Positions 3,811 to 10,959 of a stretch of 64,000 nt of DNA are shown here, piece after piece; the first letter of the stretch is position 1, and every line of letters begins with the position of its first letter. The stretch lies in the NCBI GenBank assembly GCA_947588005.1, contig CANPYE010000002.1, positions 3,733-67,732 of the forward strand, written 5' to 3'. The stretch is from an uncultured Lachnospiraceae bacterium (lineage in GTDB: Bacteria; Bacillota; Clostridia; Lachnospirales; Lachnospiraceae). A program made the translations under genes and the position numbers. The notes beneath the pieces are model-generated. The model saw only the letters and a list, made by a program, of their open reading frames with translations, was not told the origin of the DNA and searched no databases.

Positions 3811-3932
3811 GTATAAAAATGCAGAAAGTGTGCTGCCGGTTCCCTGCCCGCATGGAAATACAAAAAACGCGTCACCAGCGCATTGCCTGCATGGAAATGT
3901 AAAAAGAGCGTCACCGGCGCTCTTTTTGCATA
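3811..3932. repeat. Three tandem 39-bp units of a dispersed hairpin repeat family; the last unit is the likely spoIIID terminator
   Basis: Units start at 3811, 3850 and 3889 (GCATGGAAAT...GCGTCACC.GCGC); hairpin AAAAAGAGCG-TCACCGG-CGCTCTTTTT at 3901-3927. Confidence 0.85.
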
Positions 3933-3945
3933 CTGCGTTTACGAC

Positions 3946-4221
3946 CTATTCATCTTCCTTGCTGCACATCTGGAGCCGGTGCTGATACTTCTCCCGCGTC
4001 GCCAGCCCGCCGCGGATGTGCCGCTCAGACTTATTCACGTCCAATACGATGCGTGCGGCCGCCGCCAGGGATGGGTTGATATGTTCCAGTCTCTCCGTGA
4101 CGTCCTTATGCACTGTGGATTTCGAAATCCCGAACTTCTTCGCCGTCTGTCTCACCGTCGCGTTGTGGTTTATGATGTAATTGGCGATGTCCACCGCACG
4201 TTCTTCGATATAATCCTTCAA
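3946..4221 (-). CDS. spoIIID: Stage III sporulation transcription factor SpoIIID (TTG start)
   Basis: MKDYIEER..ATVRQTAKKFGISKSTVHKDVTERL..NKSERHIRGGLATREKY. Confidence 0.97.
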   Translation of the reverse strand: MKDYIEERAVDIANYIINHNATVRQTAKKFGISKSTVHKDVTERLEHINPSLAAAARIVLDVNKSERHIRGGLATREKYQHRLQMCSKEDE

Positions 4222-4277
4222 GGTGTCCCCCGAGAATGTTTTTTACATTCTATGAGGAGGCGGGGCGGGTTATGACA
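4107..4277. repeat. 171-bp direct repeat, copy A (spoIIID promoter plus first 38 codons)
   Basis: Matches 6306-6476 with 4 mismatches (offset 2199). Confidence 0.97.
4247..4275 (-). promoter_or_regulatory. Sigma-E promoter of spoIIID
   Basis: TCATA-16 nt-CATAGAAT; spoIIID is sigma-E dependent in Bacillus and Clostridia. Confidence 0.7.
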
Positions 4278-4341
4278 GCAATACCGTGAGTATATCCGCT
4301 ATGGTCGCTTCTCCTGCAGACTTGCTATACATCGTGCTCAT
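4270..4341 (-). pseudogene. Probable stub of a HEPN partner gene (23 codons, MSTMYSK...)
   Basis: Its ATG overlaps the MNT stop region as in coupled MNT-HEPN pairs; it runs into the spoIIID repeat. Confidence 0.35.
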
Positions 4342-4765
4342 ATACGACAACCCCCTCTCTCTCAGCTGTCTCGACAGCCGTTCCGGTCAAATAATCATAA
4401 TTCACAACATCCGCCCTGCCTTTTGTAACACTGGATGTCACGCTCCGCATATTCCCTGTAAACGGTCTCAGAACACCATCCTCATCATAACAATCATCCT
4501 TCCAGTCAATGCAGATATCCAGATCGCTGGTTACATCGCAATCATAACGAATCGAACTGCCAAAAATAATGATCTTTAACACCTCCGCATCGTTCCTGGC
4601 CGCTTTCACAATCTCACTTACCATTTTTTGTTTAATCGGATGAATTCTATTCACTTCACAAAAAGAATTCTTGTCCACGATACTGTTAAATTTCCAGTTT
4701 TTTTCCTTTCTTGCCGACAGATATTCTTTTGTCGTCACGGAACCACCATGAAGCCTTTGCCTCAC
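4325..4765 (-). CDS. Minimal nucleotidyltransferase (MNT) domain protein
   Basis: IIIFGSSIRYDCDVTSDLD fits GS-X10-DXD. Confidence 0.85.
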   Translation of the reverse strand: MRQRLHGGSVTTKEYLSARKEKNWKFNSIVDKNSFCEVNRIHPIKQKMVSEIVKAARNDAEVLKIIIFGSSIRYDCDVTSDLDICIDWKDDCYDEDGVLRPFTGNMRSVTSSVTKGRADVVNYDYLTGTAVETAEREGVVVYEHDV

Positions 4766-4795
4766 AGCGGTTCCCTTATTTATCTCTGCATCTCC

Positions 4796-4835
4796 ATTTT
4801 GCTGCTACAGTATGCACCGTGGACTTGGAAATTCC
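4796..4835 (-). other. Third, diverged spoIIID-core junction (att-like site)
   Basis: Encodes GISKSTVHT; 21/25 identity to the spoIIID core and 16/20 identity to the junction at 6291-6310. Confidence 0.75.
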
Positions 4836-5056
4836 CTTACGTCAAACAGGCTTTTACTTCCTTTTTCAGCCCATGACCTGACAGTCTCCGCTCGGCTTGC
4901 TATTTACCAAAAATAATTCCGCTTTCTATATCCCAGTTGTAAAATGAAATATTATTTTGAAATTTTGGCAATCGGGTTGAAAAATCAAATATTTTACAAT
5001 ATAATGAGAATGATTTTATATATCGTTTTGCAGCAATGCTGAACGGAGGAAAATGA

Positions 5057-5263
5057 ATGCCTATCTCATACAATAGATTGTGGAAACTGATGATTGATAA
5101 AAGCATAAATAAAACGAAGCTGCGCTCACAGGCTGGCATTTCATCCAACGCTATGGCAAAGCTCGGCAAAAATGAGTCCGTGCAGGTGGAAGTGCTGGTG
5201 AAAATATGCAACTGCCTTGGATGCACGATGGACGACATTATGGAAATTCTGTCGGAAGAATAA
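5057..5263 (+). CDS. Cro/C1-type (XRE) HTH regulator
   Basis: ISYNRLWKLMIDK..AGISSNAMAKLGKNESV..KIC..L.C...DI; GGAGG RBS. Confidence 0.9.
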   Translation: MPISYNRLWKLMIDKSINKTKLRSQAGISSNAMAKLGKNESVQVEVLVKICNCLGCTMDDIMEILSEE

Positions 5264-5327
5264 GTTCGGTTTTGGATACTGAAACTATTATGATAGGATT
5301 GCTTAACTATAATCGGAGGTACTGACC

Positions 5328-5375
5328 GTGGCTGAAAAAAACAACGCCAACATCGGCTTTGAAAAACAAATTTAG
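5328..5375 (+). pseudogene. hsdM: N-terminal stub of type I R-M methyltransferase
   Basis: GGAGGT RBS then GTG-AEKNNANIGFEKQI-stop, resembling the HsdM N-terminus of Firmicutes. Confidence 0.65.
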
Positions 5376-5380
5376 CGGCT

Positions 5381-5520
5381 TAGTCGGGATTATTTGTCTT
5401 TGGGGTTCCACCGCCTAAAACTCGGATTAAAGCCGTGAACGGTTGCCGATCCGTTGAATCATCGTAGTATTTACTGAAAATAGCCTGCGCTTGCTGCTCT
5501 AAATTATTGTTTATTACAGA
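5381..5520 (-). pseudogene. hsdS: Internal fragment of type I R-M specificity subunit
   Basis: INNNLEQQAQAIF (conserved helix) followed by LGGGTPKTNNPD (TRD start). Confidence 0.7.
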
Positions 5521-5607
5521 ACATTTAATAAAATAATATAATAGGAAACGTGCCGTTTCTCAATGTAGTTAATGGACTAAAATGTTTGCCCCAAAGGAGA
5601 TGATTTT

Positions 5608-5910
5608 ATGAGTGATACTGTATTTACAATAGAAAAAATTGTAGCCTTGGTAAAACCGTTGGCTGAAAAATATCAAGTTCAACAGATTTATCTGTTTGGG
5701 TCATACGCAAGGGGAGAAGCCGGTGCAGATAGTGATTTGGATTTTCTGGTATATGGGGGAGAAAATTTTAAACTTACTAAAATTTTTTCTCTCGCAGAAG
5801 AATTACGAGAAGTGTTGAATAAAAAAGTGGATGTGTTTGAAATTCACGAGATTAATATGGACAGTGATTTTTATAAGACAATCATGAAAGAAAGGTTGCT
5901 GGTGGCATGA
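5608..5910 (+). CDS. MntA-like nucleotidyltransferase antitoxin
   Basis: LFGSYARGEAGADSDLD; overlaps the HEPN gene (ATGA). Confidence 0.9.
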   Translation: MSDTVFTIEKIVALVKPLAEKYQVQQIYLFGSYARGEAGADSDLDFLVYGGENFKLTKIFSLAEELREVLNKKVDVFEIHEINMDSDFYKTIMKERLLVA

Positions 5911-6254
5911 AATATTCGGATCAACAACGTGTTCAAAAGATATATGATAATGCAGTAAAGCTTCATAATTATATCAAGGAAAATCATGTCAGCAAAGAAG
6001 ATTTGCTAAAGGAATTATCCCTGCAATGGCTTGTCACAACACCGTTGTATAATATAGGTGAACATGTCTATAACTTGTCAAAGAATTATAAAGAGTCGCA
6101 TCATGAAATTCAATGGGCGATGATTTCCGGACTCAGACATCGCCTGGTACATGATTACGATGGGACGAATTGGAACATCATCGCCGATGTTGTTTTCGAT
6201 GAGTTGCCGATTTTAATAACGCAATTAAAAGAAATTCTGGATAAAGATCAATAA
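5907..6254 (+). CDS. HepT-like HEPN (DUF86) RNase toxin
   Basis: NIGE and W.MISGLRHRLVHDY (R-X4-H-X-Y). Confidence 0.9.
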   Translation: MKYSDQQRVQKIYDNAVKLHNYIKENHVSKEDLLKELSLQWLVTTPLYNIGEHVYNLSKNYKESHHEIQWAMISGLRHRLVHDYDGTNWNIIADVVFDELPILITQLKEILDKDQ

Positions 6255-6288
6255 TTTTTGATTTCAAATACAGTCTTCAATAGCCGTT

Positions 6289-6420
6289 CTATTTTGTTAC
6301 TTCCGTATGCACTGTGGATTTCGAAATCCCGAACTTCTTCGCCGTCTGTCTCACCGTCGCGTTGTGGTTTATGATGTAATTGGCGATGTCCACCGCACGT
6401 TCTTCGATACAATCCTCCAA
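6289..6420 (-). pseudogene. spoIIID: Truncated spoIIID 5' copy (43 aa, MEDCIEER...SKSTVHTEVTK)
   Basis: Matches spoIIID to codon 38 apart from two missense changes, then diverges and stops. Confidence 0.9.
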
Positions 6421-6476
6421 GGTGTCCCCCGAGAATGTTTTTTACATTCTATGAGGGGGCGGAGCGGGTTATGACA
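6306..6476. repeat. 171-bp direct repeat, copy B (includes the sigma-E promoter at 6446-6474)
   Basis: Matches 4107-4277. Confidence 0.97.
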
Positions 6477-7815: not shown

Positions 7816-10800
7816 TTATCTTCCGAATATTTTCCGGTACAGGCGGAATCTCCACCCGGCCATTACCAGTACGCCCGCCGCAACAAGCGCTATCATTGCC
7901 CTCTGCAGCCATTCACTGATGGCCTTAAACATTCTGATATACTGAATACCGCTGTTTCTGTTATACTGTCCGCCGGGCTGATGCGACGCGTCCGATGAAG
8001 ACTGTCCGCCGGAGGAATCTCCGTCACTATAAGCTTTCAAAGCTGCTTCCTTCTTCTCTTTCTGTTCTTTCTCCTCCTTCTCATTCTCAGAAGCGGCAGA
8101 GTTATTAACTGCCTTCAACGATCCTTTAACCATTTCCGGTGAATCTTCCGCCTTCTTCTGCGGCTTCGCCGCCGTATCCATCGGCGCTTCCTTCAGATTC
8201 GAGTTCTCCTCTTTCCGGTTTTTATCCGGTTTATGCACTTCTTCCGGCGCATTCTCGGGCTGTTCTTCTGATAGTTCATTCCCGGACTGGCCTTCCGATG
8301 GTGCATTCTCCGGTTGACCTTCCGACGGTGCGTTTTCCGGTTGGCCTTCCGACGGTGCATTCTCGGACTGGCTTTCTGACGATGCATTCTCGGACTGGCT
8401 TTCTGACGATGCATTCTCGGACTGGCTTTCTGACGATGCATTCTCAGGCTGCCCTTTCACAGCCGCATTCTCGGACTGGCTTTCTTCACTTACATTCGGC
8501 CCCTGGCCGCTGCCTTCAAAATGGTTTCCAGCTTCTTCGTTTAACTGCCTGCTGCCGCTGGATTTTTCGTGATTCGACGCGGGCTCATTGCTGTTATTCT
8601 GATTCTCGTCCTCTGTCTCGGACTGCTTGTTGTCTTCCGGTTTCTCCTTGCCTGACTCAGACTGTTCTTTGTTTTCCGGGTTCTCCTTGCCAGCCTCAGA
8701 CTGCTCTTTGTCTTCCGGATTCTCCCTGCCGGCTTCGGACTGTTCTTTATTCTCCTGATTCTCTCCGCCCGTTTCAGACTGCTCTTTGTCTTCCGGGTTC
8801 TCCTTGCCGGCCTCGGACTGTTCTTTATTCTCCTGATTCTCTCCGCCCGTTTCGGACTGCTCTTTGCCTTCCGGATTCTCCCTGCCGGCTTCGGACTGTT
8901 CTTTATTCTCCTGATTCTCTCCGCCTGTTTCGGATTGCTCTCCGCCTTTTTCCTTCGGCTGGTTCTCCTGCTCCTTATCAGGCTCCCTCTGGTCGTTGTC
9001 TTCCTGCGATGGTATTTCTTTCCAAATTGCACGGAAGAGCAAGTCTCCTACTGTTCCTCTTTCGATCACCACTTCCGTCTCATCGTGCTCTTTCTCGCTC
9101 TCCTTCTTAACTCTGATACCGTCTCCGAGCGCCCAGCCCACGAATACATACCCATCCTTTTCTGGATTCGCAAGCCGGATCTCATCCTCTACCGTATATT
9201 CCGACGGATTGAGATTCTCCCAACCGCTTCCCTCAAGCCCTTCATAGCTAATCCTGTACTTCTCGGGGACGAAGACGAATGTTACGGTATTCTCCGGTGC
9301 GCTGCCATCCTTTTCAGGATCCAGCGTGAAATACGGATGCGCGTCTCCATCCAGCTTATAGCCCTTTCCCGCCTGACTGCGGACGACCTCTGGATCCGCG
9401 TTGACCACGAAGCCGGCCCCCAAAACCGGCAGTCCGATTCTTTCCTCGATCACAGTGCCGTCCATGTATTGGTATACGACCCTGTAGGTCCGTCCCGTAA
9501 TCTTGGCATACTCGAAAATGATCTCGTTTGCGCCGGTTTTCAGTGTTACGGATTTGCTCAGTCCATCCGCAGCATACCCTTCAAAGCCCTTCGCTCTTAC
9601 GGTCACCTGCGTACCTGCAATTCCAAACCGGGTCTCCGGCTCTGCCAGTTTATCTCCGGATTCCTTATCGATGTAGCTCACAGTGTAATAGGAAACAACA
9701 GCCTCGCTTTCAGGTACATAAACAATAAGGATGATCTGCCCCGCGCCTTCCAGCACTTCATTGTGAATCTCCACCGCCACATAGCCTTCTATCTTTACGG
9801 GCTGGGCATCTGTCATTTCCCCGATCAGTCCATATCCCGCAGTTGTTTCAACCGCATCTTCTTCAGCGCCTTTCAGTACATGCTTTACACCATAGGCCAT
9901 TTCTTCCGCTGTCAGGGTCACCGTCACATTATAGACTTCTCCATCCTTTAGATTCTGTCCCTGCCCTGATACGACGCCATTCTCATATGTCAGTTTGAAC
10001 CCGGGCGCCGCGCTTACAGAGCCGACTGCATATCCCGCGTATTCTCCCGGGAGCGGGTAGAAGAAATCGTAAATGACATCTCCATCGTTCTCAGTACCCT
10101 CGACCGAAATCAGATCCACGCTGACCAGATCCTTATTCAATTTAACCATCACATTGACAGATACCTGCGGAATCCGGTCCATTACCGGTTCTTTCAGCAG
10201 GCCCTCGTAAACCGCGACAGTCGCGATCTGCGGCTCGTCTCCCTGCGGAGGCTCTCCCTGAGGCGCATCTCCCTGTACTGCACTCACCTGCGGGCCATTC
10301 CCTGACGGGGGGTTCTCCTGCAAGACATTGTCTGGCCGGGCACTTCTCCTGGGCGCACTTTTCCGTGGGAGCCCGGCCGCCCTTTTCTGCGGCTGGTTTT
10401 CTTCGCTTTTGTTCTCCGCAGCTTCGCTCTCTTTCTCCGCCCCAGGTACGGACTGGCTCTCCAGCTCCAACTCCGGCTGATTCCCTGCCTCAGGTGCGAG
10501 CTGGCTCTCCGGCTCGATCTCCGGCTGGTTTCCTTCGCCGCTATTCTCCGCCGTTTCGCGCCCTTTCTCTACCCCGCCGTTTTCTGCAGCTTCGCTCTCT
10601 TCCTCTTCCCCGCCGTTTTCTGTAGCTTCGCTTTCCTTCTCTGCTGCGCCGTCTTCCGCAGCTTCTCTTTCCTTCTCTGCTGCGCTGTCTTCCGCGGCTT
10701 TACTTTCCTTCTCTGCTCCGCCGTCTTCCGCGGCTTCGCTCTCTGCTGCCTCATCGCTGGCTTCTCCCCCACTGAATCCGTCATCAATGGATTCTCTCTG

Positions 10801-10959
10801 ATCATCGGAACCGGAACTGATCATGGTACCCTCAGATCCAGCTGCGTTTTCTGCCGCAAATACCATTCCTGCATTCGCCCCAATATGAGTGACTGCCATC
10901 ACCAACACCAACAAAAATACCATGAACCTCCGATAACCCTTTCCTGCTCTTTTTAACAT
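7816..10959 (-). CDS. Large cell-surface protein with MucBP-like and InlB B-repeat-like domains and acidic repeats
   Basis: Signal peptide; YTVSYID..G.KLA..AK.FEGY; NPSEYT..L.NP.KDGY.F.GW; 36-, 39- and 27-bp repeats; C-terminal TM and basic tail. Confidence 0.75.
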   Translation of the reverse strand: MLKRAGKGYRRFMVFLLVLVMAVTHIGANAGMVFAAENAAGSEGTMISSGSDDQRESIDDGFSGGEASDEAAESEAAEDGGAEKESKAAEDSAAEKEREAAEDGAAEKESEATENGGEEEESEAAENGGVEKGRETAENSGEGNQPEIEPESQLAPEAGNQPELELESQSVPGAEKESEAAENKSEENQPQKRAAGLPRKSAPRRSARPDNVLQENPPSGNGPQVSAVQGDAPQGEPPQGDEPQIATVAVYEGLLKEPVMDRIPQVSVNVMVKLNKDLVSVDLISVEGTENDGDVIYDFFYPLPGEYAGYAVGSVSAAPGFKLTYENGVVSGQGQNLKDGEVYNVTVTLTAEEMAYGVKHVLKGAEEDAVETTAGYGLIGEMTDAQPVKIEGYVAVEIHNEVLEGAGQIILIVYVPESEAVVSYYTVSYIDKESGDKLAEPETRFGIAGTQVTVRAKGFEGYAADGLSKSVTLKTGANEIIFEYAKITGRTYRVVYQYMDGTVIEERIGLPVLGAGFVVNADPEVVRSQAGKGYKLDGDAHPYFTLDPEKDGSAPENTVTFVFVPEKYRISYEGLEGSGWENLNPSEYTVEDEIRLANPEKDGYVFVGWALGDGIRVKKESEKEHDETEVVIERGTVGDLLFRAIWKEIPSQEDNDQREPDKEQENQPKEKGGEQSETGGENQENKEQSEAGRENPEGKEQSETGGENQENKEQSEAGKENPEDKEQSETGGENQENKEQSEAGRENPEDKEQSEAGKENPENKEQSESGKEKPEDNKQSETEDENQNNSNEPASNHEKSSGSRQLNEEAGNHFEGSGQGPNVSEESQSENAAVKGQPENASSESQSENASSESQSENASSESQSENAPSEGQPENAPSEGQPENAPSEGQSGNELSEEQPENAPEEVHKPDKNRKEENSNLKEAPMDTAAKPQKKAEDSPEMVKGSLKAVNNSAASENEKEEKEQKEKKEAALKAYSDGDSSGGQSSSDASHQPGGQYNRNSGIQYIRMFKAISEWLQRAMIALVAAGVLVMAGWRFRLYRKIFGR

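Follow-up and report, generated by a model that had tools for sequence, protein, structure and literature searches.

The window analysed here, the whole stretch of 64,000 nucleotides taken from an uncultured Lachnospiraceae genome (G000, an 81%-complete MAG), carries an intact spoIIID gene, a truncated copy of it further upstream (copy B) and, inside the island between them, a third and much shorter piece of the same gene at positions 4796–4835. The question raised by this locus is what kind of event leaves the same few codons of a sporulation gene behind a third time, and whether the site that they mark is still in use. The minus strand from 4835 to 4796 reads GGA ATT TCC AAG TCC ACG GTG CAT ACT GTA GCA GCA AAA T, which differs from both longer spoIIID copies of the window (GGG ATT TCG AAA TCC ACA GTG CAT) at 4 of 24 coding bases, all at third codon positions; the similarity to spoIIID ends after CATA, the same base at which copy B breaks off. 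The spacing of the two junctions is 1495 bp, measured between the C bases of their central CA (6309 in copy B, 4814 in the third junction), and their element-side arms are identical at 12 of 16 positions, or 16 of 20 by the count given in the first-pass annotation of this DNA, whose sequence details (the four third-position changes, the common break, the 16/20 arm and the spacing) were all confirmed on re-reading.

Over 40 nt the two junctions agree at 32 positions, compared with a best of 27/40 among 200 shuffles of the whole 64-kb window and about 9e-8 matches of this quality expected by chance, so that the pair is homologous, as first proposed, and no chance duplication. The degenerate pattern drawn up at that stage matches the genome twice, at these two junctions, and reversed-pattern controls give no match. 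It could be argued that the likeness of the third junction to spoIIID is accidental, or that it is a piece of some unrelated helix-turn-helix gene, an outcome that the first-pass annotation had itself named as fatal to its reading, given that GISKSTVH-like motifs occur in many HTH proteins (as weak Pfam HTH matches). However, not only does the 32/40 match exceed the shuffle maximum, but the 23-mer at the heart of the junction is identical at all 23 positions to the live spoIIID gene of a relative (G002; 22/23 in G004 and in G009, 19/23 in G000's own two copies), and the homology extends into the non-coding flank in four other genomes. The nucleotide identity and the flank homology rule out the unrelated gene fragment, and we regard chance as a vanishingly improbable explanation. 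The synonymous changes, earlier taken as divergence of a third copy, are simply the spoIIID sequence of sister species. Logan contigs from rabbit-gut runs, probably of the same sample as the genome, cover 4228–5442 with zero differences and bridge the third junction.

The surroundings of the junction are those of a layered island. The intact, live gene occupies 3946–4221 on the minus strand (91 aa; Pfam SpoIIID, 1.2e-41; protein 97–99% identical to those of close relatives), and comparison of att-site contexts places the central CA of its attB at 4110–4109. Its front end belongs to a 181-bp direct repeat (repeat search family D1), here called H, which consists of a sigma-E promoter and the spoIIID 5' half, codons 1–38. 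The regenerated copy, H(down), lies at 4097–4277 and is 96% identical to H(up) at 6296–6476, both on the minus strand; H(down) matches the relatives, whereas H(up), the upstream copy, carries nonsynonymous changes and is decaying, its truncated ORF (6289–6420) having K2E and Y4C. In all copies and all species the similarity begins at a -35-like GTCATAAC, followed 14 nt further by CATAGAAT, an arrangement that we take to fit the sigma-E promoter consensus. Read in the direction of the gene, the sequence between the H copies holds an MNT-HEPN pair, hsdM/hsdS relics, an XRE gene, a PIN relic, the third junction, here labelled attL(b), and a nucleotidyltransferase; no recombinase gene is present between the two repeats.

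The junction of copy B, attL(a), covers 6259–6309 on the minus strand, with its central CA at 6309–6308 leading into an arm and flank, P'a, that match the left-junction arm of G022 but for one base in about 49; in G022 this arm leads into hsdR. Next to it is an intact toxin-antitoxin pair on the plus strand at 5608–6254, two overlapping ORFs encoding MNT (5608–5910; Pfam Polbeta, 5.8e-17) and HEPN/HepT (5907–6254; HepT-like, 2e-13). Relics of a type I restriction-modification system follow at 5331–5514, namely an hsdM start (5331–5373) and an inverted hsdS fragment (5466–5514), both recognised by BLAST against the complete hsdM and hsdS genes in G009 and G002, and then an XRE/Cro-type HTH gene (5057–5263, plus strand; Pfam HTH_26, 3.8e-17) that is common to the type I restriction-modification islands of these two genomes, the stretch 4935–5373 that holds it being 91–93% identical to L019 and L020. 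The hsdS fragment has the opposite orientation to the intact genes in G009 and G002 (L019 4723–4771, L020 4433–4464), which hints at inversion or shuffling of hsdS before the restriction system was lost in G000.

Immediately beside the third junction is a PIN-like (DUF3368) toxin gene relic (4838–4900, minus strand), in which an internal piece, ..AETVRS.., has been joined to the C-terminal end, ..GLKKEVKACLT with its stop codon; it was identified from its translation, from BLAST to the PIN genes of G051, G052 and G004, and from Pfam on an intact homologue. It directly abuts B*, the 21 nt of spoIIID (codons GISKSTV) that with the central CA make up 4813–4835 on the minus strand, beyond which 4766–4812 (minus strand) form the element-side half-site, the P'b arm and its flank (PWM score 28.7). 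The remaining unit, cassette 2, is an orphan MNT-type nucleotidyltransferase (4325–4765, minus strand; Pfam Polbeta/NTP_transf_2) with orthologues next to HEPN genes in L019 and L028; the HEPN partner is present in G009 and G048 and deleted in G000. A segment of about 40 nt (4278–4319) adjoins H(down) and is kept in G000, G009, G002 and G048 regardless of cargo (BLAST through 4315–4319 in L004, L006 and L028, and alignment). The division of the island at the third junction into cassette 1 (4836–6290) and cassette 2 survives as regards its layering; cassette 1 as a single unit does not, being composed of the restriction-modification relic, the XRE gene, the MNT-HEPN pair and the PIN relic.

Elements that make such junctions are found intact in relatives of the same genus. 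In G022, G011 and G049 spoIIID is split at exactly the junction base, with no other intact copy in each assembly, and a Resolvase-Recombinase-Zn_ribbon_recom protein of 508–521 aa, a large serine recombinase (LSR), is encoded immediately before the 3' half, in the orientation of the gene and reaching into the junction. Complete elements lie on single contigs in G049 (L027; 4.1 kb, with a MotA/OmpA-like pair as cargo), L064 (6.1 kb) and L071 (10.6 kb). The arm of the third junction matches the left junctions of G011, G048, G051 and G052; it is similar to P' of the G011 LSR element, and identity of the P'b flank is 85% over 81 nt to the attL flank of G048, 96% over 28 nt in G051 and 84% over 68 nt in G052. 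A metagenome search with the arm pattern returned 48 contigs, about 32 of which have the codons ..FGISKSTVH just before the arm, while the strict pattern in species genomes matched only four contigs: those of G022 and G011, an attL in a member of the Acutalibacteraceae, whose genome has the same spoIIID junction, and a chance match in a Bathyarchaeota. A truncated spoIIID 5' copy occurs in at least 23 of the 192 Lachnospiraceae genomes with a match to the spoIIID 5' end (one genome per genus, truncation being judged by open-frame length among the matches listed). The earlier proposals that the motif marks element boundaries elsewhere and that a recombinase drove the duplication are borne out by these contigs and the relatives' spoIIID junctions, and by the nearest recombinase, which in the relatives' elements adjoins the other junction: LSRs are the cognate enzyme family beside attR.

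Among viral contigs the arm pattern has three matches, none of them adjoining spoIIID, and there is hence no sign that the elements are phages. The best protein match to the LSR among phage records (55% identical, in a 6.4-kb faecal 'Bacteriophage sp.') was set aside, the record being a chromosomal attR fragment and no circle. Separately, the recombinase ORF crosses the attR crossover in L027 (G049; 4273–5808) and L016 (G022; 622–2187), and in G049 its stop codon TAA is partly formed by host bases right after the CA; the C-terminus of the recombinase would therefore change on excision of the element. The cargo of the G049 element (L027 1890–4239) comprises a MotA/ExbB-like protein and an OmpA-domain protein, which may form a defence module, and an 84-aa ORF without Pfam family just upstream of the recombinase, a candidate directionality factor.

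Comparison of attL, attR and attB in G011, G022, G049, L064, L071 and L088 places the exchange point at the CA that opens the His38 codon of spoIIID, and resolves the site into 21 nt of spoIIID (the B half-site), the central CA in the His38 codon and an element arm of about 25 nt, P'. In five attR sites the P arm repeats P' imperfectly, in inverted orientation around the CA (16/23 identical in L064; counted by hand, 19/27 in L071 and 19/23 in G011), and the attP deduced from these arms would be a palindrome around CA, as expected of large serine recombinases. The third junction reads spoIIID(21 nt)-CA-P' and breaks at the base seen in seven other attL sites. Had elements integrated sequentially at one att site, as the first-pass annotation had it, two of them would stand in succession at a single site with an attP-type or hybrid junction in the middle, and the common orientation, common break point and homologous arms of the two junctions agree with this. 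Yet plain tandem accretion predicts an inverted P' as the left arm of the middle junction, and the arm observed is spoIIID sequence, 21 nt identical to G002 and unlike the P arms of real attR sites, all five of which are inverted P'-like; moreover, G048 and G052 have the same junction with longer spoIIID arms (143 nt in G048, codons 12–39 kept in G052). We consider it a very unlikely account of this locus, and a possible true case is found elsewhere, in metagenome contig L066. Since the left arm of the third junction is spoIIID and real P arms are inverted P', the junction is of attL type and not of attP type. At the level of nucleotide sequence, the comparison shows a fossil attL of an LSR element targeting the spoIIID His38 codon, one layer among several; with the middle junction an attL, the spoIIID 5' half must have been re-created between two insertions.

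Good P' arms with left arms other than spoIIID were observed at L066 2264–2289, L054 1250–1275 and L068 5142–5167. The arm in L066, 1.6 kb downstream from an ordinary spoIIID attL, may mark a genuine tandem junction of attP type, while those of L054 and L068 may represent other targets or free attP sites.

Several genomes preserve arrangements that resemble intermediates of this history. G048 has, in order, H, CA-P'b, the same nucleotidyltransferase with its HEPN partner, H and then intact spoIIID, which is evidently the third junction and cassette 2 as they stood before truncation. G051 carries a degenerate attL(b), a UPF0175 antitoxin, a DUF3368/PIN toxin and an H with a fresh attL(c), and in G004 the antitoxin and PIN genes lie directly upstream of H and intact spoIIID. 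The one-contig, complete genome G136 contains H1-attL, a 5.7-kb TOTE defence island, H2-attL, 25 kb of further sequence and the 3' half of the gene, its two H copies being 82–84% identical; the older layer (L089 3492–6491) encodes a 999-aa AEP-TOTE/helicase/PLD protein of the TOTE conflict system, which is another defence cargo fixed beside spoIIID. In G079 a 5' copy and the 3' half lie on one contig about 28 kb apart, and other contigs carry three more 5' copies, two of which are truncated by the contig edge, so stacked units are probably present there too. Islands with a rebuilt gene and without recombinase occur in L058 and G123. Depending on the lineage H is 143, 181, about 300 or about 575 nt long, as would fit independent events, and in L058 the duplication takes in about 350 nt of upstream flank; within the genus of the window the island-H boundary is always at the -35 box, which could instead point to an H that moves together with its cargo. 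No homologue of the third junction was found in G009 or G002, and the order of the array differs between G000 and G052, which implies that rearrangements have occurred and blurred the history.

Taken together, we think it probable that the third junction is a fossil attL left by repeated rounds of insertion, target regeneration and re-insertion at spoIIID. Each layer began as the insertion of an LSR element into intact spoIIID, as the anatomy of attL shows. The recombinase end would then have been lost and an intact gene re-created through a new copy of H, that is, of the sigma-E promoter and 5' half; the outcome of this step is seen repeatedly, and the step itself we infer. The rebuilt gene presents a new attB, so the next element would insert into the rebuilt spoIIID, landing downstream, and arrays would grow toward the gene. 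Two routes of regeneration are favoured by the variation of repeat length between lineages and by the upstream flank included in L058: homologous/illegitimate recombination with an intact allele, with one illegitimate end, or Campbell-type insertion of a looped-out circle bearing H. As the PIN relic directly abuts the 21-nt spoIIID arm, a later deletion of about 190 nt, reaching from the stop codon of the PIN gene to a point 21 nt short of the CA, would have removed most of the former H, and most of the PIN toxin gene would also have been deleted later. Toxin-antitoxin cargo may hold the layers against repeat-mediated loss. The order of insertion events set out here is our reconstruction. The two long spoIIID copies of G000 share four derived states, which suggests conversion between them; indeed this explanation needs gene conversion, since these derived synonymous states are shared although the island-H junction predates speciation.

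A different source for the layers would be ready-made modules of the form H-CA-P'-cargo, looped out by H x H recombination or carried on foreign DNA, that entered by RecA-dependent crossover in H and so imported their attL preformed. A B* arm with the sequence of a sister species and not that of G000 would be expected from such import, as would the limited identity of H2 to H1 in G136 and the upstream flank included in the L058 duplication; the cassette, 40-nt segment and H boundary that are common to G000, G009, G002 and G048 despite varying cargo point the same way, and so does the conversion between repeats implied by the derived states common to the two H copies of G000. Nevertheless, an original LSR insertion somewhere is still required for each attL, recombination between H copies that are 16–18% diverged would be inefficient, and the rabbit-gut contigs contain neither a circle nor an empty-site variant. 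With regard to these contigs, unitigs break within the 181-bp repeat and the two H copies are thus not phased by contig-level data; they contain no clear-cut joint of an H x H deletion or of a circle, and the two joints that are present (4276>4872 and 4164>6435), with short sides, probably derive from relatives. We judge module import to be rather unlikely, and it overlaps with, and does not exclude, the insertion and regeneration cycle that we prefer.

A further extension of that cycle, which we hold to be doubtful, is that units composed of a P' arm, defence or toxin-antitoxin cargo, and the sigma-E promoter with the spoIIID 5' half are themselves mobile and insert precisely at the CA with a replacement front end, making spoIIID a self-regenerating landing pad. 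If this were true, cassettes would accumulate in order on an integron-like platform fed by serine recombinases or their parasites, a platform present in roughly one in eight Lachnospiraceae genera.

Whether the site is still in use is a separate matter from the recombinase-driven origin proposed in the first-pass annotation, and nothing points to a system that is active now. The best match in G000 to the LSR that targets spoIIID is only 29% identical, so that no close homologue is present in this 81%-complete MAG (where an LSR could be unassembled), and PWM scans of the window found no P arm of an attR or attP partner anywhere and, on both strands, no other relic att sites. The tyrosine recombinase at 2–655 was considered as a driver and rejected: it is outside the island, 3.3 kb past the 3' end of spoIIID, and unrelated to the junction architecture. 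A recombinase supplied in trans might still use the ~48-bp attL(b) to move or delete cassettes, since the 21-nt B* arm has about the length expected of a half-site for an LSR, P' has a good PWM score and related LSR elements circulate in the same genus. Against this live-site reading stand the missing partner in the window, the distant LSR match, the state of the same relic in other genomes (degenerate in G051, absent in G009 and G002) and the fact that LSRs are not known to pair attL with attL or attL with attB. We find it highly improbable that the site is live; as no cognate LSR, attR or attP was found we call the third junction a relic, and the 4796–4835 site is probably inert today.

The parent elements in the relatives come closest to the skin-type elements, which are known from sigK (skinBs with SpoIVCA; skinCd with CD1231 and CD1234), spsM (SPbeta with SprA) and gerE (gin with GirC) (PMC5025042, PMC4191935, PMC5595907). 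Like these, they interrupt a mother-cell sporulation gene, carry an LSR at the element edge beside the 3' part of the gene and are bounded by hybrid attL and attR sites in which imperfect inverted repeats flank a short core. They differ in that the target is spoIIID and that in G000 the gene is intact and nothing but scars is left of the elements, whose recombinase is gone; interruption of the skin kind, which makes excision necessary to rebuild the gene, is seen in G022, G011, G049 and G136 and not in G000. Our literature search on spoIIID interruption found only a one-line mention, of a skin-like element interrupting this gene in Ruminiclostridium cellulolyticum (bioRxiv 10.1101/2022.02.25.481979). 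The target gene and recombinase class are the same as in the family of the window, but that report comes without att sites, survey, relics or stacking.

The stacking itself has its counterpart in tandem islands. At tRNA genes, and in the CIME/accretion of ICESt1 and ICESt3, an integrating element restores the whole target on one side and leaves part of it on the other, so that repeated insertions build up arrays of islands that lack a recombinase and have partial copies of the target between them. The enzymes there are tyrosine integrases, whose attP natively carries the duplicated target segment, in contrast to the LSR, 2-bp crossover and palindromic attP deduced for the window's family, and here the regenerated piece is the promoter and 5' half of a protein-coding gene. 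SXT integrates into the 5' end of prfC and supplies a new promoter and 5' coding sequence; at spoIIID, too, the target stays functional with a replacement promoter and 5' end at the element edge, but SXT carries this segment in its own att region and uses a tyrosine integrase, while in the window an element-borne H is only one possibility. Integrons, with the tyrosine recombinase IntI, attI and cassettes ending in attC, were also considered and set aside, the island having no integrase and its junctions being LSR attL sites. What is new is the stacked relic at spoIIID; skin-like intervening elements and island stacking at regenerated targets are known kinds.

One essential sporulation regulator gene serves as a readable record of successive mobile-element insertions, a series of dated scars; after each insertion the gene is rebuilt, with a defence or toxin-antitoxin payload left next to it. 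The logic by which target regeneration leads to island stacking at tRNA genes is extended to a serine-recombinase family and a protein-coding target, suggesting a route by which defence genes come to adjoin spoIIID in gut Clostridia. For annotation, truncated spoIIID ORFs are to be read as scars and not as paralogues. The natural attB, attL and attR and the deduced attP with its CA crossover belong to a widespread and barely described LSR family that could serve genome engineering.

A few further observations concern spoIIID and its neighbourhood. Besides its normal copy, G023 has at the beginning of a contig (C33:18–257) another, divergent gene that resembles spoIIID (60% identity). Homologues of spoIIID have been described on the Clostridium phages phi6013, phiCP51 and phi3626 (PMC5027557). 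Just 3' of spoIIID in the window, a hairpin-like sequence of about 35 nt (3901–3936, with an inverted repeat at 3897–3910/3918–3931) recurs at dozens of sites in the genome and also in several species of the genus (G013, G002, G021 and G009), and looks like a REP-like or terminator repeat family. Finally, the window contains at 7816–10959 a 1047-aa ORF, probably for a surface protein, that has a signal-like segment at its N-terminus and otherwise consists mostly of acidic repeats rich in E, S and N; a similar repeat-rich ORF lies upstream of spoIIID in G049.
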